From: a virus
Taxonomy: Duplodnaviria > Heunggongvirae > Uroviricota > Caudoviricetes
Reading direction: 5' to 3' (one strand)
DNA: 64,000 bases
IMG/VR virus record: IMGVR_UViG_3300022862_000263
Shown: positions 4,216 to 49,637 of the stretch, piece after piece
Numbering within the stretch: the first letter of the stretch is position 1
Layout: each line of letters begins with the position of its first letter
Made by a program: the position numbers and the translations under genes
The notes under the pieces: generated by a model
What the model was told of the DNA's origin: nothing
Databases searched by the model: none
The model's input: the letters and a program-made list of their open reading frames with translations, nothing else

Positions 4216-4277
4216 TGGATACCCTTAAAGCGGATGGGGAGGTGACGCCCTGAAGCCTGCAGAAGGCAGAATATAGA

Positions 4278-5529: not shown

Positions 5530-5795
5530 AACAAACCACCTCGAGAGGTGGTGAACAACATCCGGATCGAGCGCTGGATGCTATTGAATTTGAAAACCAC
5601 CCTACGGGATGGCGAAGATGGTGGCTTTTGCCACTCCAAACCACCCCTTGGTGGTGAAATCTCGGAATCCAAGCTGACTTCAAAACCGCTGCTGCGGCGT
5701 ACCATGAAGAGGGTCTTGATCTCAAAACCACTGTAAGGTGGTGGCAAGGTTTTACCATCTTCGAAACCACATTTGCGGTGGTGAACCGGTTTGGG
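5530..5795. repeat. array B: about 6 tandem units of ~40-45 bp with the same tcaaaaccac..gtggtg hairpin core as array A
   Basis: Units start near 5530, 5590, 5634, 5679, 5721 and 5760. The core is the same as in 4278-4535. Confidence 0.6.
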
Positions 5796-5998
5796 GCTCT
5801 GGTTCTGCGTAGGGTCGTTTGAGGCGCCGGCGCCGATGATGCTTTTGATGGTGGCGAAATATAGTTACTATTCGGCATTCCGTCAATATATGCCATACGT
5901 TGACCTGATAAAGGCCTCTACGGTGTGAGCGGATCTTTTAGCAGCAGCCAGCAGGTCTGGCTTGCTCAGTTGTTGAGCCAGGCCTTGGCAGGCCTGCA

Positions 5999-6865
5999 GT
6001 GAGTTGCGCCGATCTTGAAATGTTTGATGATCGACTAAACGGCGTTATTAGGTTTTCTCAGCCCGCTATGCGGGAGTGGGCGACAAGGCGTTTCGCTACA
6101 ACGCCCCACCAGCCCGGCATGAGCTCGCCTACCTGCTGGCTCAGCCTTGCAGTTGGAGCCAGGCGAAATCTAACATTCGGTTTGGTGAGCGCTACTTTGC
6201 TGTGGCTTTTCGAGAAGGCAAGCCCGAGGTCAAAAGCTGGCCACCACCCTTATTCACCCACCTTGGTAGATCTTATGACAAGCTCAACCGCATCCTACAC
6301 TCAACTGCTGGTGCACGCGGCATTGGCTTGCTCGCACCACCGGATTTTGCAAGGTATCTACAACGGCAGTAGCCAGAGAGATCACACCAGTCACATTGGA
6401 AACGCTTACCGGAAGGCTGTCGATGCCTTGCAAAAGCTGGCCAGAGTCAGCAAGGCGTGTGGGAAAGATGCCAGGAGCTCACCGATGTATGAATCGTTCG
6501 GCGATCTTTCGTCGCACTATGAGCAAACCTACGAACAATGGCGCCCAGTGGTGTGCGATGATCTCACGCCGCGAGTGATCTTCGACGCCATGGAGAAGGG
6601 CAACAAGCTGATCTGGAGAAACTGGACAATCAGCGCCTCCCGCTATCAAGAAGTGACCGACGATTATGGGTTGCCGGCATGGGGGCGAGTGGTGACGATC
6701 ACCAGTCCAAACGGCGTGAGGGTAAAGCTCGAGCACCCTGGGCGACCTTGCTACAGGGCTCGTAAAATATTTGAATCTGTGCTTGGATACGCCTTCCAGG
6801 GTAATGACGGCCTACAAGATGACCCAATCCACCGGTACGACCAAAACGAGTGCTGCGAATACTGA
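5999..6865 (+). CDS. hypothetical protein (true start probably internal, about 6278)
   Basis: Long ORF. The C-terminal two-thirds look protein-like. The N-terminal third is overlapped by the alternative frame 6076..6372. Start unresolved. Confidence 0.3.
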   Translation: MSCADLEMFDDRLNGVIRFSQPAMREWATRRFATTPHQPGMSSPTCWLSLAVGARRNLTFGLVSATLLWLFEKASPRSKAGHHPYSPTLVDLMTSSTASYTQLLVHAALACSHHRILQGIYNGSSQRDHTSHIGNAYRKAVDALQKLARVSKACGKDARSSPMYESFGDLSSHYEQTYEQWRPVVCDDLTPRVIFDAMEKGNKLIWRNWTISASRYQEVTDDYGLPAWGRVVTITSPNGVRVKLEHPGRPCYRARKIFESVLGYAFQGNDGLQDDPIHRYDQNECCEY

Positions 6866-7373
6866 CTGCAAGGTTACTGCAGGCTCAGACTCTTTTGCGG
6901 TGAGCGGCCCTGACCTCAAAGCCATCTCTCAAGGGTTCATCACAGGTGAGCTATCAGCGGAGAAGGCCATTGAGCTGGCGCAGGATCACCACTTCCGTGC
7001 CAGGCACGAAGCGGGCCCTCCATTCTGAGTGCATGGCTCGCACACACCTCCAATCACCGTTAGCCCGTAGACGCCATGAATCAAGACGAGCCAGATTTCG
7101 TTCAGCATCTGATTACCTGTTCATTCCTTTGGGCTCAGGTGAGCTTTCTGTACATGACATTTAGATTTTCCATGGATGCTCTGTGGGGGTTTGGGCTGAT
7201 GATCCTCCGTGACGAAGCTCATGGAGCTAGCGTTATCGCATTCATCCTGACTGCGTTCATCTTCTGGATGATGGGCCGTGAGGTGAACAAGCATGCTAAC
7301 AAGAGAATGGATAGGCTCTACCCGAAAGATTGAGCTGCAACAAACGTTTTCTCTAAGGTACATATAGCAATTA

Positions 7374-7401
7374 TTGACTTGATATCATCATGATATACAA
7401 T
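7374..7401 (+). promoter_or_regulatory. sigma70-like promoter (TTGACT-16-TACAAT) with embedded 7-1-7 palindrome atatcatCatgatat
   Basis: TTGACT at 7374-7379, TACAAT at 7396-7401. The palindrome lies in the spacer, so a possible operator. About 250 nt upstream of the 7655 CDS. Confidence 0.35.
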
Positions 7402-7654
7402 GGATGTCATCAAGAACGGCTCGCCCGTTAACCCAATATGGCAGGCAATAGCTATGACGCCCTCGCACCATACGCACCTCAGGTGCGGCTCTGCATTGAA
7501 CCGCCGTGGACAGTCATGGACTGCTTCCAAACAGTAGGGCTTGTCTGCAGTAACTCATGACCGCTGGCGCTGTAATAGGCGGTAAACCATCGACGTGCAT
7601 TTTTCACCAGGTCTCAATTAGCCTGTGTGTAGCGCTCTAACGCAAGGAGAAAGA

Positions 7655-8650
7655 GTGAATATCATCATCGGACTGGTTGGCTTGGTTGCTGCCATCTTGG
7701 CTTATAAGCGAAAATCGGACATCGGCTTTGCATTTGTCGGTGTAATTTTCATGTTTTGGTTGGGCCATCAGCAGGGTAACGACCTTTGGGGGACGGTTGA
7801 ACTTGTTTTCAGATTTAACCTTCTGTACGTGGCGCTGTCGGCAGCTGCTGCTTTTCTTTTAGGTCGTGTGGCTATTCACCTGGGAGAAAAGGCAAAAAGC
7901 GAAAAAAAATCGGAACGAGATGGTGTTCTGAAAGGGATGAGCCTAGTCGTAGGCCGAATCTTGCAGACCAACAGTAACACTACAGTATTAACTGATGTCA
8001 ACCTGACCCGGAACGTATTTGGAGGACTCCAGGCCGATACGACCCATGACGTTCAAGTAACACACAACACGTGGTTGCGCGATCTCAATACCAATCGTGA
8101 GGTGAATTACACTGGAAGTGGGCAGCTTAGGGCCCGTGTAGGCCATATTTTTGGAACGATGAGCTGGAGAGGTGACAGCTTAATTGATCACAATTTTTCT
8201 ACAGGCAGAACCTATTCGGCGCAGGCGACTTCTACCAACATTATCCTTTCGGTAATTTTCTCGCTCGTGATGATTATTTTTGGATGGGCTCTTTTCCCAA
8301 TTTTTGCTCTTGCTTCTCCTCTTGTGTGGGCTGGTTTAATGCGGTGGAAGGGTGGTGCGATATATCTTGATCGCGCAATACCTGGGGTTAATCGTCTGGA
8401 ATCAATATTTACATACGGCGGCGGAGTTATTTACTTAGCAGTCTGGCTGTATCTATTCAACTATCAGCGAGGAAGTGTTGATGATTTCATTGCAGCTGGG
8501 TCTATTGTCTTTGTTGCTTTAGTTGCATTGCATCAATACGTTGTTCGAACGGCTAAGACTCGTCACGATGCTTTAATTACTGCGGGTAACGCTGAACTTG
8601 CTCGCCTCTATCACAAGGCTGAATATAAGTTGCCAACCGAAGTTTGCTGA
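7655..8650 (+). CDS. hypothetical integral membrane protein
   Basis: GTG start 6 nt after AAGGAG (7644-7649). Hydrophobic helices at both ends and an Asn/Thr-rich central region. Lower GC than the neighbours. Confidence 0.5.
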   Translation: MNIIIGLVGLVAAILAYKRKSDIGFAFVGVIFMFWLGHQQGNDLWGTVELVFRFNLLYVALSAAAAFLLGRVAIHLGEKAKSEKKSERDGVLKGMSLVVGRILQTNSNTTVLTDVNLTRNVFGGLQADTTHDVQVTHNTWLRDLNTNREVNYTGSGQLRARVGHIFGTMSWRGDSLIDHNFSTGRTYSAQATSTNIILSVIFSLVMIIFGWALFPIFALASPLVWAGLMRWKGGAIYLDRAIPGVNRLESIFTYGGGVIYLAVWLYLFNYQRGSVDDFIAAGSIVFVALVALHQYVVRTAKTRHDALITAGNAELARLYHKAEYKLPTEVC

Positions 8651-8765
8651 GTTAGGGGCGCCTCTCAGGCGCCTCTTATCGGATTTGGAGTTGGCAGCAA
8701 AGTCACCCAAGTGGGAGCGCGGATTGGTTCGCGAAATATGGCTAGAATGGCGGTAAATTCAGTAG

Positions 8766-9467
8766 TCACGTGTGGTTCATCCGAACGAACTTCAAAACCT
8801 CATCACTCGCCGACACGCCTATGGCGATCTTTACGTGCCTACCAGCTACAAGAGCAATGTCGCAGGCGCTAGAAGCTGTCTCGCTGATCGCGGCAATCTC
8901 GCTCATCAATGTGAGCATATAGGAAACCACGGTCTGCCTGACCTGGCTAGCAGGCAGTGATTCTAGAGCTGCCGTAACCACGTCCTGCAGCGAGGCCTGC
9001 AACGCCTGAGCTTGCTCCAAGGAGAAACCGCCAGGGAAGCATATGACCTTTCCCTCGGCTAGGACGCATAAGGATTCGGCGCTGCAGTCTTGGTGGAAGT
9101 ACACAAACCTGGTGACCAATTTATCATTCTCAGCGGTTGGATACGTGAACATCCAGGACGTTTCGGCCAAATCGGCCTGTAGGTAGGGGCTGTCAGCATT
9201 GTCCTTTGAAAACGAGGTGCGGACATTCAATATCGAATCCAGTATGTCTTCAGAACTGCTGAATCCATTGTCCCTGGCACGTGATTTCACAGGTTCTAGC
9301 ATTGTCGTCAAGCCAGTACCAGTGATTACGCCAACCTGAGTCCGAACAATTTTCTCTTCGTTGTCTCCTAAAGGTATTCTCAAGCCATCCTGGGTGATGC
9401 AGCTGACGCGCTTGTCGGCTGCAATGATGACCTCATCTCCTAGATGCGCAACCAAAATACAGGTCAT
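8766..9467 (-). CDS. putative Ntn-hydrolase/proteasome-like (HslV/Anbu-like) protein
   Basis: 233 aa. Begins MTCILVAHLGDEVIIAADKRVS, like the Thr1-nucleophile N-termini of HslV/proteasome beta homologs (TTIVSVRR..VVIAGDGQ). Confidence 0.35.
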   Translation of the reverse strand: MTCILVAHLGDEVIIAADKRVSCITQDGLRIPLGDNEEKIVRTQVGVITGTGLTTMLEPVKSRARDNGFSSSEDILDSILNVRTSFSKDNADSPYLQADLAETSWMFTYPTAENDKLVTRFVYFHQDCSAESLCVLAEGKVICFPGGFSLEQAQALQASLQDVVTAALESLPASQVRQTVVSYMLTLMSEIAAISETASSACDIALVAGRHVKIAIGVSASDEVLKFVRMNHT

Positions 9468-9684
9468 AAATTTTCTCTCGTTGACGCACGAAATCTACAC
9501 GACTGAGCTTCGGAACCGCCGTTAGGCCCAGGTGGGTGCAGTCATCATAGCAGGGCGTTAAGGCCCCTGGGTCTGGAGGTTACGGAGTAATGGGCAGCAG
9601 CCACCCTAAAAATTTCGACAAATTAGGATTTTTGCTACTGAGTTCTAGTCAAACCTTAGAAATTACACTGCCCGGTATTCAGCC

Positions 9685-10632
9685 ATGCCCCCATCCCAGC
9701 CGAGCAACAAGATTCCCGAAAGATTTCCGCCACAGCTGGCGCTGAATGTCATCCAGCCGCCCCAAGGATCTTGGCACTGGGAAATCAAATTCGATGGTTA
9801 CCGGGCCATGCTCCATATCCTTGGCGGTAGGGTGACCCTCTACACCAAAAATGGAGCTGACTGGACACGAAAATTTCCCAGAATCGTCTCAGCTATTGAG
9901 TCGCTTAGCCTGCAGAATGCCTGGCTTGATGGGGAGGTCATACTGCCTTCTAGCGACGGTAAACCAGACTTCGGCGGGCTCCAGGCGGCCATCGCTGGTG
10001 GCACAACAGACGACGTCGTACTCTACCTGTTCGACCTGATGTTCTATGCGCGGATCGATTACAGGATGAAGCCCATCGAAAAACGCCGGCGTAAGCTTGA
10101 AGGGTTACTGGAGGGCGTCGACCTTACGAATATCAGGTTTTCAGAAGCGTTTGCAGAGCCGGTGGAGTCCCTGCTGGCTTCTGCCTGTGCGATGGGGTTG
10201 GAGGGGTTGATAGGCAAGAAGGCGGGTAGCAGTTACACCTCGAGTCGTAACGGCGACTGGGTAAAGCTGAAATGCAAGCAACGCCAGGAGTTTGTGATCG
10301 CCGGCTACACGTCAGTTCAGGCTGGGGCAGGGGTTGGCTCCCTGGTTTTGGCTAGGTATGACGACGGTGGAAATCTTCTGTACGCGGGTAGGGTGGGTTC
10401 AGGTATCCGAGATAGAGATTCTGCGATTTTGTCGCGAACGCTGAAGCCCCTGAAAGCGGACTGCCCCTTAAGCTCGGCTGATGCAAAGCTCAAGGCCTCG
10501 GCCATCTGGGTGACGCCTGAGATTGTGTGTGAGGTGCAATACGCAGAACTCACGAGACGGGGCATTGTCAGGCATGGCGTATTCGTTGCGCTACGCAGTG
10601 ATACGCCAGTAAAATCTGTAAAACTTGAGTAG
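9685..10632 (+). CDS. ATP-dependent DNA ligase (LigD-ligase-domain/LigC-like)
   Basis: 315 aa. Motif I EIKFDGYR (adenylation lysine KxDGxR). Ligase motifs LEGLIGK and WVKLK are present. Confidence 0.8.
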   Translation: MPPSQPSNKIPERFPPQLALNVIQPPQGSWHWEIKFDGYRAMLHILGGRVTLYTKNGADWTRKFPRIVSAIESLSLQNAWLDGEVILPSSDGKPDFGGLQAAIAGGTTDDVVLYLFDLMFYARIDYRMKPIEKRRRKLEGLLEGVDLTNIRFSEAFAEPVESLLASACAMGLEGLIGKKAGSSYTSSRNGDWVKLKCKQRQEFVIAGYTSVQAGAGVGSLVLARYDDGGNLLYAGRVGSGIRDRDSAILSRTLKPLKADCPLSSADAKLKASAIWVTPEIVCEVQYAELTRRGIVRHGVFVALRSDTPVKSVKLE

Positions 10633-10646
10633 TACTTAAAAACGAC

Positions 10647-11348
10647 TCAGTACCTCTCAAAGACCTCTTGCGTTAGGTCTTCCTCTGTAACACCATCAAT
10701 TTTCATTAATCGTTCAGCTTGCTTGACGCCGTGGTTGTAACCCTCACCCCAAGCCGCCGCTGCAATCATGTAATCTTGGAAAAACCCGAGCTCACTGCCG
10801 AACAGGGGTATCACTAGCGAAGCGCTTTTTTGCGCAGACGTGAGCGCTTTTCTGTCATCAAACCTCTCAAGCTGATCATAAGTGCTTCTTAGGGATGACT
10901 GGGCAGAGTCAATGTACTCAGATATGTAATCGGTATCTGGCCTTCTATTTTCGCGATCTACATCGCACCATTTATCAAGCATGGCTGCAACATCTATCAA
11001 TACAGGGCACAGCTTGGCTTGATCTTTTATATTTGAGATTCCTGAAAAGCTACCCTGCAGCATGTAGATGCTGATGCTGTATGCCTCTTCTCCGCGTATG
11101 GTAATAGCGCTTGATTCTTCTGATGGAGGCTTTATGGAGCAGCGATACTTCCTGGCTATGGAATTAAGCGCATCCATCAGTTCGCCAAAGGTAAGACTCT
11201 CATCCCTGGTGAGGTTTGGCACCTCGGGTGCGAATACATCGACAAGAGTGTGATCATGACCTCGGCGCTTCCTGCTTGCGTTCATCAAGGGCACAAGTCT
11301 ATTTGCGACGTGAAAAAATTCTCGATGCGAATTTACGGCTCTAGGCAT
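10647..11348 (-). CDS. hypothetical protein
   Basis: 233-aa ORF, no recognisable motifs. Confidence 0.4.
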   Translation of the reverse strand: MPRAVNSHREFFHVANRLVPLMNASRKRRGHDHTLVDVFAPEVPNLTRDESLTFGELMDALNSIARKYRCSIKPPSEESSAITIRGEEAYSISIYMLQGSFSGISNIKDQAKLCPVLIDVAAMLDKWCDVDRENRRPDTDYISEYIDSAQSSLRSTYDQLERFDDRKALTSAQKSASLVIPLFGSELGFFQDYMIAAAAWGEGYNHGVKQAERLMKIDGVTEEDLTQEVFERY

Positions 11349-11541
11349 TAGGGCTGTCCCTTGATCTTTTTTCGATTTTATCTCGATGACTCAATTAAAA
11401 GCGAGAATTGCCAGGCCACTGCTGTAGCAGGGCTCGTCAAAAATCAGGGCAATGCTGGGCTTCGTCGCCACATGATGGCTGGACAGGAGTAGATTCTTTT
11501 GGTATTCTTTTTAAATTCTTTCGTGGTTTTTTGGTAAAAGA

Positions 11542-11937
11542 ATGGCAACGATAGCTATCGACCTTCCCGATGAGGTTCTCCTCAAGGTAATGCAGGCGGC
11601 CTCGGCAGAAGGGCGTAGCCTCAATGACCATGTCGTCATGACGCTACTCGACTCGTTGGCGACTCCGGAAAATGGAGCTCCTCCCAACGCCGGCGCCGCC
11701 CTGGTAGAGAGCATACTCGAGCGCTCGATCAACTTTGTTCTTAGCATAGATGCTGGTTCTGAGTTTTTTCTTTCAGACGTCTGCAATGCCGATGATTGGG
11801 CAGCCCTGGATGCCGGGCAGCGCAAAAGCCTTGGCAAGAAATTCCGGAACCAGGTCACTGACAGAGGTCTCGCGATATGGAAAGGGAAAAGTGGGAATAA
11901 CCACGCCCTCTATGTGCGCTGTGATGCAACCCCTTAA
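11542..11937 (+). CDS. hypothetical protein with RHH-like N-terminus
   Basis: 131 aa. The N-terminus MATIAIDLPDEVLLKV..EGRSLNDHVVMTL resembles ribbon-helix-helix antitoxins/regulators. Confidence 0.35.
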   Translation: MATIAIDLPDEVLLKVMQAASAEGRSLNDHVVMTLLDSLATPENGAPPNAGAALVESILERSINFVLSIDAGSEFFLSDVCNADDWAALDAGQRKSLGKKFRNQVTDRGLAIWKGKSGNNHALYVRCDATP

Positions 11938-36372: not shown

Positions 36373-38175
36373 TTATTTCGCCTGAACTGCGGGCGGCCCA
36401 ACCCAATTCAGTGCAACGTGAGCTGCCCGGCACTGAGTGACGTCCAATTCATACTGGGCACGGGTCAAAGCAACGTAGAAGATCCTTGCCTCTTCAGGGG
36501 TGAAAGGAATTTTAGATTTTTCGGCGTCGTTTTGTGGGAAGGCGAAGTCATCAGCAAGCCGAACAGAAGGGAATTGCAGACCCTTTGCCTTGTGAACCGT
36601 TGAGATAGTGACATCCGCCTCGGCCTGGCTGACTTTGTGAACCGCATTCAGCGCTACTAGCAGCTCTTGGGGCGGCCAGGTTTCGATAAGCTTCACCAGG
36701 GTGGCCAACTCAGCCCCAACCTCTGTCTCAGAATAATCGATAAGCTCATTCCAGTTGTCGAACATCTGGAAGTCGGGAGAGCGTGGGCGTCTATGTTGCA
36801 TCAGGCTAATGCAAGACTCTACCTCGGTGATGAGTGTGGAGACATCCCCGGCCATGTGCACCTTCTTGCCGAGCTTCAGGGCATCCATAAGCTCGCTGAG
36901 CGCACCCTTGTTGCCACGGCATAGAATCGCCTTGGGATTCGGGACTTCACATAGTCTTGATTCAACCATGGGAGACCCAACGATTTTGAAAGACGTTTCT
37001 CCTAGAAAATTCTGCAGAACCCGGTTGGCAATTTCTGCTACAGGTTGCCCATAACGGAATGACCTGGTGAGATCGCAAGTCTGATCAGTAGTGATTGCGT
37101 CCATGGCGTTCACAGCTCCGCGCCAGCCATAGATCTGCTGCCGGCGATCACCTACCCAAATGACCTGACAGGGCTGTTCCATTATAACTTTCAGGACTAC
37201 CTTCGAAGTGTCCTGAGCTTCATCGAGTAGGATGAAGTCACAGCCGAGCACTGGTCTGCTGAGTGCCCAGATCTTCAGGTAGACATCCGGCCAGATAGGA
37301 AGGGTGCCATTCACATCACTGAGCATACGCCAAAGCATAGCCGCTAGTGGGCCTAGCTTGGACGCTATGGGTTGGGCTGCAAGATAGGCTTCTTTGCGAT
37401 CACCTTTTTTGGTCATCTTGTAGAGGATGGGCCATGGTGCTGAATCAAGGTCGAGCTGCTGGGAGGCGCCATGAGTAAAATTGGCGACCCACTGTCGAAT
37501 AACGTTGGCCTGTTCGTATTTTGAGATCCCGTCGAAGTCGCTGAGGTGCAACGCATCAATGATGATTTTGCTAGCCAGGTTCTTTTTCTGAATCCGATGA
37601 CTGAAGGGATGCCCGGCGCCCTCATAGGCCACAGAGTGGGTTGTCCGGCAGTGGGTGTTCTGGCTGAAGCGTGAAGAAGCCTCTTTGATGATGTCTTTGT
37701 TGAAGGCCAGGTAGAGTCCCTTCCTTTTGCCCATGTTCAGACTGATCGCTGATAGCCCGCTGGTTTTTCCTGAACCGGCGCCAGCCTCCACCTTCAGGCT
37801 ACATCCCGAGACGGCGTGCTCGACAGCCTGCTGTTGCTCATCGGTAAGCGGGTGGTCGCCCAGTTTGAAATTCCTGGGGTTTGACTGCAAAGGTGGAGCT
37901 TTCAGTCGGTTTAGTGCCGCCATGGCTGGGGACGGCGGTAATAGGATGGGTGCTTGAGCCGCTGTCAATTCCGGCATCGGGGCTTGATCCAGCTTACCAT
38001 CAGCGGTCGTCTGGTAAAGGTCTGACATCCCGATTTGAGCAATCAATGACTTGCTGGTTGCTTGAGCATATAGCTGATCGGCCTTTTTCAGCGCGTCGCG
38101 CAGCCTGGCGTTTTCAAGCGCCAGCTTCCGGATGGTGTCGGTGTGATTTGCTGCCATGCGACGGCACCTGAACAT
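36373..38175 (-). CDS. SF1 UvrD/Rep-like DNA helicase
   Basis: 600 aa. Walker A AGAGSGKT. Motif II ILLDEAQD. UvrD-type motifs throughout. Confidence 0.7.
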   Translation of the reverse strand: MFRCRRMAANHTDTIRKLALENARLRDALKKADQLYAQATSKSLIAQIGMSDLYQTTADGKLDQAPMPELTAAQAPILLPPSPAMAALNRLKAPPLQSNPRNFKLGDHPLTDEQQQAVEHAVSGCSLKVEAGAGSGKTSGLSAISLNMGKRKGLYLAFNKDIIKEASSRFSQNTHCRTTHSVAYEGAGHPFSHRIQKKNLASKIIIDALHLSDFDGISKYEQANVIRQWVANFTHGASQQLDLDSAPWPILYKMTKKGDRKEAYLAAQPIASKLGPLAAMLWRMLSDVNGTLPIWPDVYLKIWALSRPVLGCDFILLDEAQDTSKVVLKVIMEQPCQVIWVGDRRQQIYGWRGAVNAMDAITTDQTCDLTRSFRYGQPVAEIANRVLQNFLGETSFKIVGSPMVESRLCEVPNPKAILCRGNKGALSELMDALKLGKKVHMAGDVSTLITEVESCISLMQHRRPRSPDFQMFDNWNELIDYSETEVGAELATLVKLIETWPPQELLVALNAVHKVSQAEADVTISTVHKAKGLQFPSVRLADDFAFPQNDAEKSKIPFTPEEARIFYVALTRAQYELDVTQCRAAHVALNWVGPPAVQAK

Positions 38176-38369: not shown

Positions 38370-38717
38370 GTGAACACTCATAAGTTGCATGACGAATACA
38401 GTAGGCAAGCTCATAGCTTGGTAGCCTCAAAGCTTCGTGCAAATCCAAGCTTAATAAATATTGCGAAAAGAAATCTCCTAGAGATATCTAAAGAGTTGCC
38501 GAAGAACTCGGTAACTGTCATGGAGTGGGAGATTATTCTTAAGTGTAATATTGACAGTATTTGTGACTTCATTGTTCAGAATAATGACCACCTTCAAGAA
38601 CTTCGGCAATCATCTCCGTTTTCTGGGATGATTACCACAGAGGAACGGAGAAACCTGCGTGAAAAGATCTTCTCTAGAACATCTGATTCGAGTAGCGAGC
38701 CAAATTACAGGCGATAA
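38370..38717 (+). CDS. hypothetical protein, low-GC cassette gene 1
   Basis: 115 aa, AT-rich. Overlaps the next ORF by 59 nt in another frame. Confidence 0.35.
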   Translation: MNTHKLHDEYSRQAHSLVASKLRANPSLINIAKRNLLEISKELPKNSVTVMEWEIILKCNIDSICDFIVQNNDHLQELRQSSPFSGMITTEERRNLREKIFSRTSDSSSEPNYRR

Positions 38718-39585
38718 TGAAATTCTCATAATAGGGAGTCAAGCGTTTCACGGAGCCTCTAGGTCTTTGCCAGACGCTGTCGAAAGATCAATTGAGGCTG
38801 ATTTAGCGTTAGTAAACCTTCCTGAGAAGTGGGAAGATATCGATGGGGCTATTGGGGAAGACTCAAATTTTTTCACCCTTCATCGTTATTATGCCCAAGG
38901 GGTGAGCGCGGATACGGCAATTTTACCACTAGGATGGAAAGATAGACTAAATTATATAAATAATGAGAATACTGGCGGCGCCACCGGGTGCTGTATTGGT
39001 ATATATGACCTTGTACTGTCTAAGTATTGCGCGGAACGAGAAAAAGATTTTGAGTTTATTTCCGAAATAATTAGCATGGATATGCTGGATCAGAGTACCT
39101 TGAGTGATCTTGCGGGCGATCTTCCAGTCGACGAATATAGGATTGATAGGATACGAGGATTTATTGAAAGGGATTTTAGACTGCAGAAGGCTAACGAAAA
39201 AGGACGTCAGATAGAAAGGATGGAGTTGTCGCTGATCGCAAAAATAGCAAATGTTGATGATCAATTGCCAATTAGATTAATTGGTGCAAGGAAGTCTCAG
39301 TACGGAATTGCTGGAATGCTTAACGAGATATGCCTAGACGATGAAGCTTTGTCGGCATCTATTAGAAAATATAACGACATTTTGGTTGATGATTTGTCAG
39401 CAATATCAAAAGCCTGGGCTGAACTGAAGAGTCTTAATCCGAATATTCAACTTCAAATAGACTCAATTGCCCAGAAAGCAGAAAATATAGCCAGGATGGT
39501 TTCAACCCAGTCATTAGAGAAGTCGATGCCAGAAGATTTGTTTGTTAAGCCTGAAAATGATGGCGATAACTTAACTCCAAATTAG
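38659..39585 (+). CDS. hypothetical protein, low-GC cassette gene 2
   Basis: 308 aa. N-terminus HLIRVASQITGDNEILIIGSQA is reminiscent of nucleotidyltransferase-fold or DUF proteins. Uncertain. Confidence 0.4.
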   Translation: MKRSSLEHLIRVASQITGDNEILIIGSQAFHGASRSLPDAVERSIEADLALVNLPEKWEDIDGAIGEDSNFFTLHRYYAQGVSADTAILPLGWKDRLNYINNENTGGATGCCIGIYDLVLSKYCAEREKDFEFISEIISMDMLDQSTLSDLAGDLPVDEYRIDRIRGFIERDFRLQKANEKGRQIERMELSLIAKIANVDDQLPIRLIGARKSQYGIAGMLNEICLDDEALSASIRKYNDILVDDLSAISKAWAELKSLNPNIQLQIDSIAQKAENIARMVSTQSLEKSMPEDLFVKPENDGDNLTPN

Positions 39586-41950: not shown

Positions 41951-42451
41951 CTATTCCAGATGAGGGCTGAGCTTGATCGATACGATTTCATAGCGAATCG
42001 GCTTGCCCCGCATAGGAAGTTCAACCTCGTCACCCACCGTCTTGTGGAGCAGCCGCTCACCAACGGGAGAGAGGTAAGAAACGATCCCTTTATCAGGATT
42101 GCCTTCCTCATAACCCAAGATCGAGTGCGTGCGCATCTCGCCATCTTCAGACTCAAGCTCCACTTCAACGCCTGGAAGAACCTCGTGAAAATCTTGATTC
42201 TGGATGTGCTCGCAATCATTGATCAGGCGGGCAAAACGGATGACGTTTTCCAGCTCCGCGATTTTGTTCGGCAGCTCGTAGGTCACCTTTGTGCGCAGCT
42301 GCATGAACTCGGGGTTCTCCCTAAGGTCGTTATCCAGGCTGGCTGAATGACCCATGGCACGGGTGGACTTTTCCAAGTCCTCGACGAGATCCTTCTGCCT
42401 GTTGGCCAAGTTCACCAATCCCTTGCGGGTGACGTAGTAAGCGGTAGACAT
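41951..42451 (-). CDS. GreA/GreB-family transcript cleavage factor homolog (Rnk/Gfh-like)
   Basis: 166 aa. N-terminal coiled-coil with acidic tip DLRENPEF (cf. GreA DLSENAEY). C-terminal FKBP-like domain GIVSYLSPVGERLLHKTVGDEV. Confidence 0.7.
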   Translation of the reverse strand: MSTAYYVTRKGLVNLANRQKDLVEDLEKSTRAMGHSASLDNDLRENPEFMQLRTKVTYELPNKIAELENVIRFARLINDCEHIQNQDFHEVLPGVEVELESEDGEMRTHSILGYEEGNPDKGIVSYLSPVGERLLHKTVGDEVELPMRGKPIRYEIVSIKLSPHLE

Positions 42452-42454
42452 GTC

Positions 42455-43030
42455 TTAATTCAACCAGGGTAGACGGGAGGCAGCGATTTTCAGCGCATCT
42501 TGCAGATCGTTGGTGCTGTTGTCGACAATGCAGAGATGCTCCCCCAGGCGCTGGAACTCGGCGAGGAAGCGATTGCGGATGCTGTTGTCATCCAGAACCT
42601 TGTCCAGATCGCTTTTGCCACGGACAGTGATTCGATCCTGGCGAACAGACTCGTCGATGTTGATGAATATGGTGGCGTCGGGTTCATGGATGTCATAACC
42701 CATGCCTTTGTACACCAGATCAACGTCCATGCCGGCAACGCGGTGAGATACTACGGTGTCGATCAGGTAACGAACGCAGTAAACGTTGTGGGTCTTGAGC
42801 TTCTCTTTGATTCGCTCAGAGGCGTAGGCAACTGCCGCCAAGTAGAATAGGAAGTGGGCAGACTGCGACCGGTCTCTTACCTCACTGTCGAACATCTCTC
42901 GGGTTTCGCCGAAGGGGCCATCCGGAGTCTTGAAAAGAAAGCCGTTGGGATCGAGCTTGCAAAGCTGTTCCGCCAGGCTCGAAGTCCCAGAGCCATCAAG
43001 CCCGGTGATGACAACCAGTTTTCCAACCAT
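42455..43030 (-). CDS. P-loop nucleotide kinase, thymidylate-kinase-like
   Basis: 191 aa. Walker A ITGLDGSGTSS. Tmk-like LID/NMP-binding layout. 4-bp spacing to the flanking genes. Confidence 0.6.
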   Translation of the reverse strand: MVGKLVVITGLDGSGTSSLAEQLCKLDPNGFLFKTPDGPFGETREMFDSEVRDRSQSAHFLFYLAAVAYASERIKEKLKTHNVYCVRYLIDTVVSHRVAGMDVDLVYKGMGYDIHEPDATIFINIDESVRQDRITVRGKSDLDKVLDDNSIRNRFLAEFQRLGEHLCIVDNSTNDLQDALKIAASRLPWLN

Positions 43031-43033
43031 TGT

Positions 43034-44920
43034 TTAAACTCCTGTGGTGTGACCAGGGATCACGGGGAAGCTGAGTGCATCCCGGATGGTGATCCGCTCG
43101 ATAGTTTCAGTTTTCAGGAAGAAGCGTTCCTTGGATTGCCCTTCTTCGGTGGCCGTCATGGCCAGATCCAGCCGTTCGACCAAGATCGAAGGGCTGTCCT
43201 TGTATGTGTTGCGTTCGCCACGTGCGCTGCTTGTCGAAGAAGCTCCAAGCACTGGTGCAACAGCAAGACGCCATGCCTCGCCTTCTTCGGCAAGCTCGCC
43301 GGTGAGGCCGAAGGCGCGCTCATGATTTGGAGTCAATGGCAAGTCAGGTCGTGAGGCGATGGCTTTGTATTCGTGATAAGCGCGGCCAAGGTTACAGATG
43401 TGCCCGGTGTCAACGCTGAGGTCTTTGTCAAAGAAGGCCGTAGACGGGTAGTTGGCGAGCTGCAGGACGCGCACGTAGCTTTTGAGCACCTCGACAACCT
43501 GCTCGCGGATGTATTCCGCAGCGCGTGGGTCGTTGCTGGTTACCGCGTCAGCCTGCTCATAGAGTGCTGTGATGATGCGTTCTACATCAGTCCATGTCAC
43601 ATTTTGCCCAGTGGACTTCGCCTGGATAAGCAGGTTCAGCAGGTACCGCTCGCCGTCGATGTAGCCTGACCCTGGGCGCTCATCGGTTTTAGGATAGAAG
43701 TACTTGGCAGTGATCCCGTCAGTCCGGCGCTCCGCATCAACGGCAAAATACTCGCCGTCTTCGTTCTGCAACCGGTGAAGCAGGGCATCGCGACATTGCA
43801 GTGATGGAGGCAGCGCGTTAGCCAAAGACAGGTCGGCGATCAGCGCCAGCATGTCATCCTGAATAACCTGCTCATGGCCGTAGATCAACCAGCAAGGATC
43901 ACCTGGTTGCGAGAGCTCGGTACCGTGGCTTTTCGCATCAGTAATGGTGGCGAACTCGAGGGTATGATGGGACGCTTTCTGCACTACCAGATAGGGGCCT
44001 GCGCGAAGCACACGATGCCCCTGAATTTCAGATACTTCGACTTCGGTTCGTACCACCAGCGGACGGAAACGCAATTCCACGCACGCGCCCTTGCGACCCT
44101 TACGCTCGGAGAGGAACGTACTGCGGTAGGTGTCGAGCATAACCGCGATGTCTTTCTCGAAGTTGTCACGGGACGCCGCTCCCACACGCTCGGCAGCCTG
44201 TGTCCAACCGTAGGTGTACGGAGAGAAAGACAAGCGCAGACCGGCAATTCCTGACATGAGGCTGCCACTGATTCGTTCGTGCATCGCCTGGATACCGGGA
44301 TTGAGCCGACTGTAGCCTACCGTTGCGATACGTACCTGTACGCCCAGATCTTCATGGAGCCACTGCACCAGATCGTCCAAGTGCGGGTAGGCGGCGGGAT
44401 CGTTGTCCAGGTAGCAGTAGATAACGCCAGGGCGATCATTGCGCTTGTTTCCGATCAGCCCGTGTTTCGGCATGACGAATCCCTGCTTGAACAAGCCGGA
44501 GCCGTCGAGTGGTTCTGCGCAAACATCGCCCTCTTCACGAGCCCAGGCGAGGGCTACCGTTTTCATCGCCGCCACCAGGTTGGCAAGATCACGGCGACTC
44601 ATGTTCCACAGCGTCGTGCCGGCGCTTTGACTGCAAAAGCTGCAACGATTGAGACAACCAACCTGCGTCTGGAAATGTCGCATCTTCTGTAGCGATTCAC
44701 GTGGCAGCGCCAGCAGCTGATCCACAAGCTCCTGTCGACGACGCTGGTCTTCATCCAGCACGTTTAGCCAGGTACCTTCGCTTTGCAGAGTAGCCAGGGG
44801 AGGTACAATGCCATCCAGACCGGTTTCCAAAGGGTCGAAAGGCCTACAAACGGCGGATTCGGTGGTAACACAAACATCGCCCATGGCTTCTAAATTCCGT
44901 TGAAGAGGTTGAATGCTCAT
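43034..44920 (-). CDS. radical SAM enzyme with ~280-aa C-terminal extension
   Basis: 628 aa. CLNRCSFC (C89-x3-C93-x2-C96) is the canonical 4Fe-4S/SAM motif. First gene of a tightly spaced six-gene operon. Start may be ATG 44920 or ATG 44884. Confidence 0.75.
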   Translation of the reverse strand: MSIQPLQRNLEAMGDVCVTTESAVCRPFDPLETGLDGIVPPLATLQSEGTWLNVLDEDQRRRQELVDQLLALPRESLQKMRHFQTQVGCLNRCSFCSQSAGTTLWNMSRRDLANLVAAMKTVALAWAREEGDVCAEPLDGSGLFKQGFVMPKHGLIGNKRNDRPGVIYCYLDNDPAAYPHLDDLVQWLHEDLGVQVRIATVGYSRLNPGIQAMHERISGSLMSGIAGLRLSFSPYTYGWTQAAERVGAASRDNFEKDIAVMLDTYRSTFLSERKGRKGACVELRFRPLVVRTEVEVSEIQGHRVLRAGPYLVVQKASHHTLEFATITDAKSHGTELSQPGDPCWLIYGHEQVIQDDMLALIADLSLANALPPSLQCRDALLHRLQNEDGEYFAVDAERRTDGITAKYFYPKTDERPGSGYIDGERYLLNLLIQAKSTGQNVTWTDVERIITALYEQADAVTSNDPRAAEYIREQVVEVLKSYVRVLQLANYPSTAFFDKDLSVDTGHICNLGRAYHEYKAIASRPDLPLTPNHERAFGLTGELAEEGEAWRLAVAPVLGASSTSSARGERNTYKDSPSILVERLDLAMTATEEGQSKERFFLKTETIERITIRDALSFPVIPGHTTGV

Positions 44921-44938
44921 AATGACTATTAGTATCCT

Positions 44939-45829
44939 ATGGCCATGAGTGAAGCCATGTCAAACAACCCTCTCGAAATTTTTGACTCCATTCGCAACGG
45001 CGCCGTGGTGCGCCGGCGCCTGCAATGGATCGAGGATCGCCTGTGGTGGGTTGGTGAGCTAAACCGCTCTGACCTCGTGCTGAGATTCGGAATCTCTCCA
45101 CCTCAAGCGACGAACGATTTTTCGCTCTATCAGAAGCTGGCACCGGACAACCTCAGGTATGACCCGAGGAAAAAGCTGTACGTGGCTGGTGAAGGGTTCG
45201 TGCCTCTTTTCCCTAAGGATCACGAGCTTTGGCTGAAGGACAATGCCACAGAGGACTCAAGCCTCAAGAGCGTCGACATGGTGGGTGTATCCTCGCTCAA
45301 GCGTGGGATCGATCCGGCATTGGTACGAAGCATCTCCATGGCTGCGAGGCACCGCATCCCACTTCGGATCGTGTATCAGTCAATGAAGGCGTCAAATCCA
45401 GAAGATCGTGTGATCAGTCCGCATGCCATCGTTGAGACTGAAGTGCGTTGGCATGTCCGGGCCTGGGATGAAAAGCGTCAGGCCTTTTTAGATTTGGTAC
45501 CCTCGCGGATTATCAAGGTCACTCCAGAGCCGGCTGCGACCTGGGTACCGCAGGAGCTCGATGAAGAGTGGAACCGAATGGTCGAGATCATCCTCGTCCC
45601 TTCAGCAAAGCTTTCTGAGAGCCAACGTCGCATTGCGGAAGGCGACTACCACATGATTGATGGCAGAAGGGTGCTGCAGGTGCGTGCCTGTATGGCGTAC
45701 TACCAACTCTCAGCGATGTATCTGGTTGACGCAGTGCGTTACCACGAAGGGCAGCCTGAAGAGCGTAACTTTGGAATCGCGGTGGAAAACTGGAAAGCTT
45801 TGCAGCCGCTGGTAATGGAGATGAACTGA
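44939..45829 (+). CDS. wHTH-WYL-domain transcriptional regulator (BrxR/CapW-like)
   Basis: 296 aa. N-terminal wHTH (LNRSDLVLRFGISPPQATNDF). WYL-domain signature ISPHAIVETEVRWHVRAWDEKRQAFLDLVPSRI. Divergent from the radical SAM gene. Confidence 0.6.
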   Translation: MAMSEAMSNNPLEIFDSIRNGAVVRRRLQWIEDRLWWVGELNRSDLVLRFGISPPQATNDFSLYQKLAPDNLRYDPRKKLYVAGEGFVPLFPKDHELWLKDNATEDSSLKSVDMVGVSSLKRGIDPALVRSISMAARHRIPLRIVYQSMKASNPEDRVISPHAIVETEVRWHVRAWDEKRQAFLDLVPSRIIKVTPEPAATWVPQELDEEWNRMVEIILVPSAKLSESQRRIAEGDYHMIDGRRVLQVRACMAYYQLSAMYLVDAVRYHEGQPEERNFGIAVENWKALQPLVMEMN

Positions 45830-46833
45830 TGGCGTTGACTTGGTCGGACTTGGCGATGATTCAAGAGCGCATGACGGAGTCGGCGGAGATTCGGTCAGCA
45901 GCCATTTTAGGAGCAGCGCCAGCCTCGGTATGGATTGCCTCCGGACTCGCGAAGATCTCCGCAGCCTATGGTGCGTCCTTGATCGAGCAATCCGTTGGGG
46001 CTCCCAGCCACCTGATTTCTGCCATGGACTACTGCGGAAAGCCGCTCTTGCGATCCCTCCCGGTACTGATCTCCATGAAGGGTCGTCATCAGGATGCCAT
46101 AAGTGTGGCCAAATCCATCGTCCATCGAAACTCGCCGGCGTCCGTCTTGATCACGGGGGATACCGATGGGCCTGCCGCACAGGTTCTCAACACGGGTGTC
46201 CAGGCATCGTGTGTGGTCTCAGCAGGATATCCGGCTCGAGATAGCAGGTTCGTGAATTGCGGCTCGATATTCATGCTTTCTGCGTTGGCCTATCAGCTGA
46301 ATAGGCAGGCCTTTGGCGATGATGTGATTGGCACAGTCGATAAGGGTAGCTTGGCGCAAGCGTTCTCACGAGCAGCGGAGGGTGCACATGCAATTGCTCA
46401 GGGTATCTCCACTACAGAATGCTGGGAACAAAAACAGCTCATCATCCTTGGTCAGGGGCTTGGATCAGAGCTGACATTGCCATGGCAATCGATCTTCGCA
46501 GAGGCGGGGATTCTGACTGCAACGTGCCTGGATCTGAAGGACTACACACACGGCGATCACCTTGCTGCCGTACGTTCAAATAATGCTATCTACCTGGTGA
46601 TTCAACAGCCAGGCACTGAAGACATGGTTCAGATTTTTAAATCTAGATTTACCGCGAGATTCCCAGTATTGGTGGCGCCGCTGGAGTCATCAGGGCCGAC
46701 GAGGTTCTGGGAGAATTTGTTCTACAGCTGCAACGTCGCTCATGCGCTGACTGACCTGCTTGGTTACGGTGGCCAGCGCCCACCAAAGGATCCAACTGTC
46801 CATAGCTGGCGAGGGTGGGGTAGTTTGTGTTGA
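45829..46833 (+). CDS. hypothetical protein, possibly double-SIS-domain-like. Translationally coupled to the WYL gene
   Basis: 334 aa. ATG overlaps the WYL stop (ATGA). Gly/Ala-rich Rossmann-like segments weakly reminiscent of SIS/AgaS-like proteins. Confidence 0.35.
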   Translation: MALTWSDLAMIQERMTESAEIRSAAILGAAPASVWIASGLAKISAAYGASLIEQSVGAPSHLISAMDYCGKPLLRSLPVLISMKGRHQDAISVAKSIVHRNSPASVLITGDTDGPAAQVLNTGVQASCVVSAGYPARDSRFVNCGSIFMLSALAYQLNRQAFGDDVIGTVDKGSLAQAFSRAAEGAHAIAQGISTTECWEQKQLIILGQGLGSELTLPWQSIFAEAGILTATCLDLKDYTHGDHLAAVRSNNAIYLVIQQPGTEDMVQIFKSRFTARFPVLVAPLESSGPTRFWENLFYSCNVAHALTDLLGYGGQRPPKDPTVHSWRGWGSLC

Positions 46834-47231
46834 ACATTGCGCTACAGGAACGCTTTCATCGTGCTTTCCATGGGCTGCGCAATCTAGTTTAGCCTGCCGG
46901 GCGCTTGCCCGCCTGAAAGGTTCAAGCTTGAAAATTTAGGCTATCTTGGCCGGGCCTGCCTTCGCATGTTGAATGACCTCTGCAGGAGCCACGCCCTAGT
47001 AATCTGCCACATGCTCAGAAAATACCTACGTCACTAGCCCACGACGTCCATCCACAAGGTGCTGATTGCTGGTTTACCTAGCTCAGCAGCATTCTTTTGA
47101 GAAAGTCGACTTGAATGGCCATGGCCGTACGATGCTTGGTGTCATTGACGTTAATCAGGCGGGTAGGTCTTGGTGAATTTGCTAAAGGTTTTGTAACCCT
47201 CTTGCTTCATCCCGCTGCCAAGGCGGCTCCT

Positions 47232-47271
47232 GATTCACAGATTCACAGATTCACAGATTCGCAGATTCGCA
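47232..47271. repeat. 5 x 8-bp tandem repeat (gattcaca x3, gattcgca x2)
   Basis: Perfect head-to-tail octamer repeats in the intergenic region upstream of nfeD. Confidence 0.8.
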
Positions 47272-47359
47272 GCCCTAACACGGGAGGCGGCAAAGCGAAA
47301 TATCTGAGTAAGGTTGGCTAGACAAAGCCGCTCGTATGGCTCCTAACAATAGGCGTATA

Positions 47360-48149: not shown

Positions 48150-49637
48150 ATGTTAGATAACGCTGCAACGATCATGTTCTGGCTCCTCCCGGTGATCATT
48201 GTGATCGCCCTGGTGATGACGTATCTGAAGAACTACATCATCTGCCCGAACGACAAAGTTATGGTGGTTTATGGTGCCGGTTCCAGCTCGGCGCAAGGCG
48301 CGAAGATCATTCATGGTGGTGGGCAGCTCGTAGTGCCTTGGTTGCAGCGTTCTGCCTTCCTGAGCCTGAAACCCATGTCGATCCCTGTCGACTTGAAGGG
48401 GGCTTTGAGCGCCAACAACATCCGCGTGAACGTGCCGAGCCAATTCACGATCTCCATTGCGTACAAAGACCAGGCGCTGATGCAGAACGCGGTGCGTTAC
48501 CTGCTTGAGCAGACTGAGGCGCAAATTAAAACAACCGCTGGGGAAATCATTTTCGGCTCACTTCGATCCGTTGTTGCGACGCTCACAATCGAGGAGCTGA
48601 CGCGGAATCGCGATAAGTTCATCAATGCGATCAATGTCAACATTGACGCAGAGCTTAAAAAAATCGGCTTGACGCTGATCAACAGCAACTTGATGGACAT
48701 CACCGACGAATCCGGCTTTATCACTGCTATGGGGCAAAAGTCTGCGTCGGAAGCTGTGAATAAAGCCAACATCGAGGTTGCCGAACAAGAGCGTCTTGGT
48801 GCTATCGGTGTAGAGGAGAACAACAGTAAACGCAACATTAGTGTGGCTGAGCAGGAAACATTATCCAAAGTTGGTGTCAGTGCCGCTGAGCGCGACCGTG
48901 AAGTTCGTATTGCTGCGCTCAAAGCAGAAACACAAAAAGGTACCAACGACTCTCAGGCTGACATCGCCGACTCCAACGCTGCCCTCGCGATTCGAGAAGC
49001 TGATGCTCATGAAAAAGGCGAGGTGGCCAAGGCAAAGGCAGCGACTACTATCGCCAATGAGCAGCGCCTGGCAGAGCAGGCAGAGTTGTCCAAGCAACAG
49101 TTGCCTGCAGCTAACGTTGCAAAAGAGCAAAAGGTGATCGAGGCCGAGGCGGAAGCTGAGAAATCTCGCATCATCGCCAAAGGTGAGGCGGACGCTATTC
49201 TTGCCAAGTTTACTGCTGAAGCTAACGGCCTGAGATTGAAGTTAGAAGCCCAGGCGGAAGGCTACAGAAAGATCGTTGAGTCGGTTGGCGGCGATACTAA
49301 CGCGGCAGCTAAGCTCATGATGATTGAGCAGGCGACTGACATCGTCAGGATTCAGAGTGAGGCCCTGTCAAATCTGGTTATCGATCATGTAACTGTGTGG
49401 GACTCCGGATCAGGTAACGATGGTCTGCAAGGCTTCATTCGAAACTTCGCGTCTTCGCTTCCACCGCTACATGAGATCTGTAAACAAGCCGGTATTGAGC
49501 TTCCAGCCGGATTTATGGGGTCGCAGTTGAAAGATCCTAAACATGCAATTACCAGGGAGCCAGCGCAGGCAGCTACAGAACCAGAGTCAGCTGCTGCGTC
49601 GGAAGCGATTGATGAACTGCCTTTAAGTAAAGGTTGA
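48150..49637 (+). CDS. SPFH/band-7 flotillin-like protein (YqiK/FloT-like)
   Basis: 495 aa. N-terminal TM, SPFH domain, long Ala/Glu/Lys-rich coiled-coil (EA-repeat-like). Confidence 0.8.
   Translation: MLDNAATIMFWLLPVIIVIALVMTYLKNYIICPNDKVMVVYGAGSSSAQGAKIIHGGGQLVVPWLQRSAFLSLKPMSIPVDLKGALSANNIRVNVPSQFTISIAYKDQALMQNAVRYLLEQTEAQIKTTAGEIIFGSLRSVVATLTIEELTRNRDKFINAINVNIDAELKKIGLTLINSNLMDITDESGFITAMGQKSASEAVNKANIEVAEQERLGAIGVEENNSKRNISVAEQETLSKVGVSAAERDREVRIAALKAETQKGTNDSQADIADSNAALAIREADAHEKGEVAKAKAATTIANEQRLAEQAELSKQQLPAANVAKEQKVIEAEAEAEKSRIIAKGEADAILAKFTAEANGLRLKLEAQAEGYRKIVESVGGDTNAAAKLMMIEQATDIVRIQSEALSNLVIDHVTVWDSGSGNDGLQGFIRNFASSLPPLHEICKQAGIELPAGFMGSQLKDPKHAITREPAQAATEPESAAASEAIDELPLSKG

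Follow-up and report, generated by a model that had tools for sequence, protein, structure and literature searches.

A CapW/BrxR-type repressor coupled, and in some lineages fused, to a diverged double-SIS protein in a conserved radical-SAM, kinase and GreA-like cassette

Why would a repressor of the CapW/BrxR type be translationally coupled to a protein with sugar-phosphate-binding features? This question is raised by a 64,000-nucleotide stretch of DNA from a virus (Caudoviricetes; IMG/VR record IMGVR_UViG_3300022862_000263), referred to here as the window, in which the gene of a winged helix-turn-helix (wHTH)-WYL regulator lies divergent from an operon headed by a radical S-adenosylmethionine (SAM) enzyme gene and is directly followed by the gene of a 334-aa protein. 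An earlier reading of the letters without database searches (the sequence-only reading) had named the regulator BrxR/CapW-like, had seen weak double-SIS features in the 334-aa protein and had suggested that the latter senses a phospho-sugar or nucleotide signal. To our knowledge, CapW/BrxR-type WYL repressors are the commonest known regulators of defence islands and have so far been treated as single-protein switches with a single signal, single-stranded DNA (ssDNA). We found that the regulator and the 334-aa protein form a conserved pair within a recurrent five-gene cassette. The best joint reading, to which we give about an even chance, is that a repressor released by ssDNA and a phosphosugar- or nucleotide-handling, probably catalytic SIS partner together control a viperin-like candidate defence system.

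The regulator was placed by its similarity to proteins of solved structure. It matched Pfam WYL at 6.1e-10 (39.4 bits; cut-off 21.8) and WYL models of PADLOC at 4.5e-12, and its orthologues bear the precomputed domains PF26109 (WHD_BrxR) and PF26107 (BrxR_CTD). When searched with phmmer against the PDB sequences, only CapW and BrxR structures were matched, with residues 24-288 aligned; the E values were 4.9e-43 for S. maltophilia CapW (7TB6), 2.1e-35 for CapW 9C5G, 1.8e-34 for 7tb5, 1.6e-32 for BrxR 7T8K and 4.1e-31 for BrxR 7QFZ. The signature RWHVRAWDEKRQAF quoted in the sequence-only reading is present, the segment ISPHAIVETEVRWHVRAWDEKRQAFLDLVPSRI aligns with CapW, and the RWHVR motif is retained together with the four residues that contact ssDNA (a Ser and three Arg). 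In Ec CapW, these contacts are S158, R180, R184 and R200, and in the solved CapW, ssDNA is bound via the protein's own WYL pocket (PMC11662680). Since all four contact residues are retained, the regulator would already have a signal of its own. A DeoR or RpiR identity was rejected because of the full-length matches to CapW/BrxR and because no HTH_6 or RpiR match was found. Judged by these matches, the regulator is a genuine, full-length CapW/BrxR repressor with wHTH, WYL and WCX domains and, taken alone, an ordinary family member; the BrxR/CapW-like identity proposed earlier is thus supported.

The 334-aa protein was placed by its predicted fold. It matched no Pfam, NCBIfam or PADLOC model, and the SIS model PF01380, with which the proposed features could be checked directly, gave no match at E ≤ 0.1. 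An AlphaFold2 (AF2) model built on the homologue alignment reached a predicted local distance difference test score (pLDDT) of 92.9 and a predicted template modelling score (pTM) of 0.92, and Foldseek returned 129 PDB matches for it at E ≤ 1e-3. Among the 50 listed, all were double-SIS isomerases, deaminases or deglycases, including Lmo0035, 2aml, NagB-II (7kqa, 8fdb), the isomerase domain of GlmS/GFAT (1mos, 3ooj) and FraB, at E values of 2e-13 to 1e-9, template modelling (TM) scores of 0.6-0.73 and 12-21% identity. The protein, called SIS below, is therefore predicted to have a double-SIS fold like that of the GlmS isomerase domain and NagB-II, though highly diverged, and the weak features noticed earlier prove to be real at the level of the fold. 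A family profile was also searched exhaustively against 1.84 billion representatives. It found PfkB::SIS and SIS::HAD proteins, i.e., fusions with a sugar kinase or a phosphatase (E 1e-22 to 1e-7); these exceed the PF01380 cut-off and are the sole sequence link, a transitive one, between the window SIS and the Pfam SIS family.

We then consider what is conserved in SIS. Its homologues form 69 clusters of about 330 aa, down to 32% identity, with Stenotrophomonas among their sources, and they have the invariant motifs SGLAK, RDxRFVN, DxKDYTHGDH and WRGWG. G39, G85, D89, E225, H241 and G242 are universal across the extended family, enzyme fusions included; the clade found in the cassette has the further invariants K42, R140, N143, D238, H244, R317, K320, W327, R328 and W330, of which K42, R140, R317, K320 and R328 are basic residues of its own. 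A weak ungapped local alignment (pairwise score 44) places E225, H241 and S82 of SIS on Glu488, His504 and Ser347 of GlmS, where Glu488 and His504 are catalytic, and the GlmS loop with Thr302 and Ser303 is replaced in the window protein. S82, like E225 and H241, is kept throughout the extended family. This pattern looks enzyme-like, with a pocket that would be more basic than in the amino-sugar isomerases. Because SIS persists in lineages without BrxR, described below, and because its Glu/His pair is common to the kinase- and phosphatase-fused SIS proteins, an enzyme or "trigger enzyme" is indicated no less than a passive sensor.

The link between the two proteins is carried by the junction of their genes and by natural fusions. 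The junction reads GGAG-N8-TGATG, in which the brxR stop codon TGA (45827-45829) and the SIS start codon ATG (45829-45831) have one base in common, in line with the overlap reported earlier, and in homologues with separate genes, the gap between the two ranges from -8 to +5 nt. A single open reading frame (ORF) of 609-653 aa encodes both BrxR and SIS in Atlantibacter (L010), Yersinia (L012), Vibrio (L013) and a metagenome (L042/43), the two being joined end to end through a linker of about 10 residues with SIS at the C-terminus of BrxR. Similarly, the profile search returned five representatives of 50%-identity clusters, 594-629 aa in length, with a C-terminal SIS domain; for P0190 and P0201, a BLASTP match of the N-terminus to the window BrxR (2e-67 and 2e-57) confirmed the fusion. 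Such fusions are Rosetta-stone evidence that BrxR and SIS act together, and this evidence strongly supports a functional link between the two. Both genes are real and the ORFs are as first described, given the 69 SIS clusters and a gene order that recurs in about 20 independent loci.

SIS also occurs without its partner. In L036 and in L040/41/47, where BrxR is absent, SIS itself is the immediate divergent neighbour of the radical-SAM gene, and every invariant residue is kept. In these variants, SIS spans 3340-4365 of L036 and 2828-3799 of L040, and the next gene in L040/41 encodes a 397-aa AAA_22/ATPase_2 protein. In L044, SIS shares the strand of the GreA-like gene and comes after it. Distant radical-SAM cassettes lack both BrxR and SIS; they were found in Exiguobacterium, where the enzyme is fused to NADAR, and in metagenomes, where it is fused to NUDIX or lies beside a CYTH or a kinase gene. 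Since two lineages keep SIS beside the radical-SAM gene without BrxR, SIS is, judged by gene content, part of the proteobacterial form of the pathway and more than an appendage of the regulator.

We gathered homologous loci by exact-protein look-up, genome scan and metagenome scan, and 23 of them were informative, i.e., had at least 3 kb of upstream sequence. In the cassette, one strand carries the radical-SAM gene (about 600-620 aa), a thymidylate kinase (Tmk)-like gene (191 aa) and a GreA-like gene (166 aa), and brxR and SIS occupy the opposite strand. The full arrangement was present in 20 of the 23 loci, and the radical-SAM gene adjoined SIS in 22; the pair of regulator and SIS thus recurs with the radical-SAM operon, as the sequence-only reading had proposed to check. 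The sole exception, L046, contains the most distant SIS homologue, an outlier of 28% identity, in a glycan operon (3030-8977) that comprises a GT9 heptosyltransferase, a canonical radical-SAM protein, a glyoxalase, SIS, a DegT aminotransferase and a GNAT protein. From this operon, the SIS clade would also partner a radical-SAM enzyme in glycan biosynthesis. No sugar-utilisation operon was found among the cassette-clade loci (22/23), and a housekeeping sugar-isomerase identity of SIS was therefore rejected; the conserved sugar-utilisation context that would have spoken against the earlier proposal did not appear.

The cassette is carried by Pseudomonas (on the chromosome and on the megaplasmid pPLMAXa), Acinetobacter, Methylomonas, Azoarcus, Vreelandella, Atlantibacter, Yersinia enterocolitica and Vibrio vulnificus. 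It is surrounded by genes for BrxL, BrxC/D with TerB, McrBC, dynamin-like GTPases, patatin, HipA, toxin-antitoxin systems, integrases, a relaxase and transposases, and from this context we infer a role in defence. An HD/PDEase-like gene follows the GreA-like gene as a fourth member of the operon in the window and in about six other loci (e.g., L006, L008, L023, L024 and L035); its place is taken by an NYN/OST-HTH gene in L019 and by a gene for an unknown 334-aa protein in L001, and elsewhere there is none. In L019 (Pseudomonas psychrotolerans L19), the cassette, with the NYN/OST-HTH RNase in place of the HD protein, lies between BREX brxL (1-314) and a relaxase/integrase module (8161-11913). 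No match to the cassette was found in the PLSDB plasmids by blastn or in the INPHARED phages by tblastn, and none in 5,426 complete E. coli genomes by blastn with the Atlantibacter fusion locus. In the literature searched, we found no description of the cassette or of the coupling or fusion of BrxR with SIS.

What would the regulator control? The radical-SAM identity of the divergent gene is genuine, as first read, though the protein is very diverged: the CxxxCxxC cluster motif and a partial TIM-barrel core were found, and the PADLOC model PDC-M51A matched a stretch of 22 residues that holds the Cys motif (E 0.028). No PADLOC viperin model matched it, and in the structural comparison, viperin was just one of many radical-SAM matches. 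Distant members of the family (L014, 8001-10232; L016, 7001-9271; L018, 6456-9480; L017, 7001-9864) are fused to NADAR or NUDIX, or lie beside a CYTH triphosphatase gene or an AlaRS-editing-like (tRNA-synt_2c) gene, which points to a substrate of the nucleotide or ADP-ribose type. The NADAR, NUDIX, CYTH and HD partners and neighbours of the family all act on nucleotides or their phosphates.

The kinase matched Pfam Thymidylate_kin at 8.1e-16, above the cut-off, as well as PADLOC PDC-M51B (6.5e-23) and VakA (6.4e-16). Its P-loop reads GLDGSGT[ST][ST] in all six cassette orthologues that were aligned, versus GLEGAGKTT in E. coli Tmk, and the orthologues retain a DRY-like Arg as well as the arginines of the LID; a conventional nucleoside monophosphate kinase is perhaps not what the gene encodes. 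The GreA-like protein matched Pfam GreA_GreB at 6.5e-18, and the acidic residues of the coiled-coil tip, D41 and E44 in E. coli GreA, do not vary in the alignment (DNDLRENPE[YF]). It scored 70.9 bits with NCBIfam greA versus a cut-off of 139 and was therefore taken to be a paralogue, not the housekeeping GreA. Such a paralogue could remove chain-terminating nucleotides from the RNA polymerase of the host, or it could use the secondary channel to deliver something. Taken together, these three genes appear to be most economically read as a viperin-like pathway whose product would be a modified nucleotide and whose private Gre factor would act on RNA polymerase.

Next, we located the region through which both operons would be controlled. 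As the longest ORFs, the brxR-type gene spans 44939-45829 (+; 296 aa), SIS spans 45829-46833 (+; 334 aa) and the radical-SAM gene spans 43034-44920 (-; 628 aa), only 18 bp from 44939. Both outermost starts were rejected. Most radical-SAM homologues have 616-617 aa, which corresponds to Met13 at 44884, and in an alignment of close relatives of the window locus, the CAT at 44884 is kept and Met1 (44920) is not; the BrxR homologues, including the natural fusion P0190, begin at ATGTCAA, i.e., at Met7 (44957) and not at 44939. With the conserved starts at 44884 and 44957, the real intergenic region is therefore 44885-44956. The spacing of 18-70 bp given earlier agrees with the 18 bp between the longest ORFs and the 72 bp between the conserved starts, and the first coordinate given there, 44884, is the conserved radical-SAM start.

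The predicted promoter of the radical-SAM operon consists of a -35 hexamer TTGACA (44963-44958), an 18-nt spacer and a -10 hexamer TAGGAT (44939-44934). Its -35 hexamer coincides with the start codon region of brxR, ATGTCAA, read as the reverse complement. This arrangement is conserved; of 24 distinct homologous control regions, 22 have TTGACA/TTGTCA-N16-19-TAnnnT, and the spacer measures 18 nt in 20 of them, although the proteins are just 38-80% identical. A candidate operator box reads GACTATTAGTAT in the clade of the window and CTATTCACTAG in the distant clade, according to the alignments. The overlapping divergent promoters that had been proposed thus take the form of interleaved predicted promoters, and we infer that the binding of one protein near 44924-44935 would occlude both. 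A perfect 9-nt inverted repeat, CATGGCTTC/GAAGCCATG, was also seen at 44882-44890 and 44951-44959, around both start codons, and gives both divergent genes the same GAAGCC-ATG start context; it was set aside because it is not kept in other loci. The features of the locus are collected in Table 1.

Table 1. Positions of the genes and control elements of the cassette, in nucleotides of the window.
Feature	Position	Strand	Basis and remarks
Shared control region, 72 bp	44885-44956		between conserved radical-SAM and brxR starts; 79% mean column identity in the clade of the window
Predicted sigma-70 promoter, radical-SAM operon	44934-44963	-	promoter scan, 10/12 matches
Candidate brxR-SIS -10, CATAAT	44918-44923	+	tentative, consensus match only; counterpart of the TGTAnnAT extended -10 in distant homologues
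Candidate operator box GACTATTAGTAT	44924-44935		position-conserved; covers both predicted start sites, with a -10 element on either side
brxR/capW-like repressor gene (wHTH-WYL-WCX)	44957-45829	+	conserved start ATGTCAA; PDB, Pfam and PADLOC matches
Coupling junction	45817-45831	+	GGAG ribosome-binding site at 45817, then TGATG; read from the sequence
Diverged double-SIS gene, 334 aa, translationally coupled to brxR	45829-46833	+	AF2, Foldseek, homologue clusters
Diverged radical-SAM enzyme, 616 aa, large novel C-terminal region	43034-44884	-	longest ORF reaches 44920
Thymidylate-kinase-like nucleotide kinase, 191 aa, atypical P-loop (Lys to Thr)	42455-43030	-	Pfam, PADLOC, alignment
GreA/GreB-like transcript-cleavage factor, 166 aa, catalytic Asp/Glu tip intact	41951-42451	-	Pfam, alignment
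Optional fourth gene, HD/PDEase-like phosphohydrolase, 267 aa	41112-41915	-	weak Pfam PDEase_I 1.4e-4, HD 0.032

We propose that BrxR and SIS are the control and accessory arm of the mobile five-gene cassette. A BrxR dimer would sit on the 72-bp shared region, where the -35 lies at the brxR start and the -10 boxes lie about 10 bp apart; with this interleaved anatomy, one bound repressor would shut both promoters. By analogy with the CapW mechanism and from the retained contact residues, ssDNA arising from phage attack or DNA damage would fill the WYL pocket and release the repressor. SIS would bind, and probably convert, a phosphorylated sugar or a nucleotide-derived intermediate or product of the radical-SAM/kinase pathway, and by contact with or covalent linkage to BrxR, it would tie expression to that metabolite, following a trigger-enzyme logic like that of the RpiR-type helix-turn-helix (HTH)-SIS regulators. 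The cassette itself, judged by its context, would be a viperin-like anti-phage system that makes a modified nucleotide, and the private GreA would rescue or target RNA polymerase. In its fullest form, the proposal is a two-input switch, with ssDNA (through the WYL domain) and a phosphosugar or nucleotide metabolite (through a catalytic SIS) as the inputs, over an anti-phage system in which a nucleotide analogue made by a giant viperin-like radical-SAM enzyme and the atypical kinase poisons transcription and the GreA paralogue excises it from host RNA polymerase as self-immunity; stated with all of these parts, we think it improbable.

Several observations weigh against the joint reading. In the control regions, no inverted repeats stood above the shuffled controls at any single locus; the inverted-repeat search of the intergenic region that had been suggested gave no arm pair better than shuffles. 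The distant-clade box CTATTCACTAG, with up to 2 mismatches, occurred at chance-level counts in the window and not at all in its control region. By comparison, each published BrxR operator lies downstream of the -10 and is an 11-bp inverted repeat whose spacer measures 5 bp (PMC9122601). SIS matched no solved SIS protein by sequence, either with phmmer or with the family-profile hmmsearch against PDB, and hhalign of the family profile with E. coli GlmS gave no support (probability 0.3%), which leaves the alignment of the GlmS catalytic residues weak. The kinase lacks the lysine of the Walker-A motif GxxGxGK[ST] and has Thr instead, which makes its activity uncertain. Of the cassette, PADLOC recognises the kinase alone (PDC-M51B, VakA) and does not call a system, and judged from the SIS-only lineages, BrxR is dispensable for whatever SIS does.

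The earlier idea was that SIS is a pure sensor, a non-catalytic subunit that binds a phosphosugar or nucleotide signal and modulates DNA binding by BrxR as in RpiR, MurR and HexR. The fusions agree with it, since SIS is joined to the C-terminus of BrxR in at least four loci, with five fusion-length representatives of which two are confirmed; so does the placement of SIS on the transcript of the regulator and outside the effector operon in all loci but one, and the RpiR family provides the HTH-SIS precedent. The same protein, however, is intact with all its invariants beside the radical-SAM gene in L036 and L040/41/47, which have no BrxR, and about 13 of its charged or polar residues are invariant, among them the Glu/His pair common to the kinase- and phosphatase-fused SIS enzymes; moreover, the WYL domain already has a ligand, ssDNA (PMC11662680). 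The part of the idea that called the pairing atypical stands, and the pairing is conserved and naturally fused as well. The sensor role is putative, and we consider a pure sensor rather unlikely. It is also unlikely, in our view, that SIS is nothing but a pathway or immunity enzyme, making the substrate or detoxifying the product and placed with brxR for autoregulated expression before or independently of the effectors. The SIS-only lineages, the enzyme-like conservation, the distant homologue in the sugar-biosynthesis operon of L046 and the fusion of the nearest sequence relatives to PfkB kinases and HAD phosphatases all favor such an enzyme, but without physical or functional coupling it would be difficult to account for the recurrent end-to-end fusions with a DNA-binding repressor, and the tight translational coupling is conserved.

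The cassette may also have nothing to do with defence and be a DNA-damage-inducible module for the nucleotide pool or transcription stress on mobile elements, with BrxR-SIS as a stress regulator. CapW/BrxR repressors do react to DNA damage (PMC11662680), and GreA, Tmk-like, HD, NUDIX and CYTH proteins have folds of the nucleotide and transcription housekeeping type. Nevertheless, the cassette is patchy and horizontally transferred, lies amid BREX, McrBC, TerB, patatin and toxin-antitoxin genes and integrases, is absent from the 5,426 complete E. coli genomes and has a kinase that matches the PADLOC defence-candidate models, and we regard this explanation as very improbable.

Among known systems, the closest to the regulator are CapW and BrxR (7TB6, 9C5G, 7T8K, 7QFZ), with which it shares full-length similarity (5e-43 to 4e-31), the RWHVR motif with the Ser/Arg contacts, a length of about 290 aa, divergent coding from its presumed target operon and a defence-island context. 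The known proteins, in contrast, stand alone, whereas the window regulator has a double-SIS partner, to which it is translationally coupled and, in some lineages, its homologues are fused; the regulator faces a radical-SAM/kinase/GreA operon rather than CBASS or BREX, and no clear 20-bp palindromic operator was found. RpiR, MurR and HexR are HTH-SIS regulators and a precedent for metabolite-controlled repression. The fused lineages resemble them in having a DNA-binding domain and an SIS module on one polypeptide, but the DNA-binding part is wHTH-WYL-WCX here and not HTH_6, the SIS module is double and not single, and no sequence similarity to RpiR was detected. BirA, NadR and PutA are trigger enzymes or enzyme-repressor fusions. 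Here, too, an enzyme-like domain is covalently joined to a repressor, so that substrate status can set expression; the analogy is one of logic alone, without homology, and catalysis by SIS is putative.

With the double-SIS enzymes GlmS, NagB-II, FrlB/FraB and AgaS (1MOS, 7KQA, 8FDB, 9OTU, 2AML), the window SIS shares the two-lobed fold (TM 0.6-0.73) and a retained Ser-x-x-Gly-x-x-Asp loop, and it has a Glu and a His at positions that align, weakly, with GlmS Glu488/His504. It differs from them in its low identity (12-21%, with no HMM or profile match), in the phosphate loop, where CGTS is replaced by SGLA, in the basic invariants and the WRGWG C-terminus of its clade, and in its setting in a defence cassette and not in amino-sugar metabolism. 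Compared with the prokaryotic viperins (pVips), NTP 3',4'-dehydratases that occur with adjacent kinases (PADLOC VakA), the radical-SAM protein has 616 aa instead of about 300, with a C-terminal structure of about 400 aa that is unmatched, and the cassette adds GreA-like, SIS and BrxR components that are not described for pVips. It also differs from PDC-M51, of which component B, the kinase, was matched (6.5e-23) and component A, the radical-SAM protein, just at the Cys motif (E 0.028, 22 residues); PADLOC does not call the cassette.

The type of operon found here, a WYL-regulated defence operon, is known; what appears to be new, given the literature searched, is the conserved coupling or fusion of BrxR with SIS and the five-gene cassette. 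A conserved, sometimes covalent SIS partnership would be the first second module, a metabolite-handling one, on the CapW/BrxR class of regulators. The compact cassette (radical SAM, kinase, GreA, SIS and BrxR) is now delimited and is widespread in gamma- and betaproteobacteria, including Stenotrophomonas and Acinetobacter. Its private GreA paralogue opens the idea that bacteria may shield their own polymerase from antiviral nucleotides that terminate the chain.

Beyond the stop codon of SIS, a tandem 8-mer, GATTCACA/GATTCGCA, is repeated five times at 47231-47272 within a non-coding stretch of about 700 bp, and no intrinsic terminator was found directly after SIS. The region of the window looks like a mosaic defence or mobile island. 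Low-GC patches lie at 31-32, 38-40 and 59-62 kb of the window, in which no tRNA was found. The cassette is flanked by genes for a UvrD-type helicase (36373-38175, -), a DUF6036 nucleotidyltransferase (38659-39585, +) and an SPFH/flotillin protein (48150-49637, +), and the helicase matches many PADLOC GajB models, the best at 6.6e-22.

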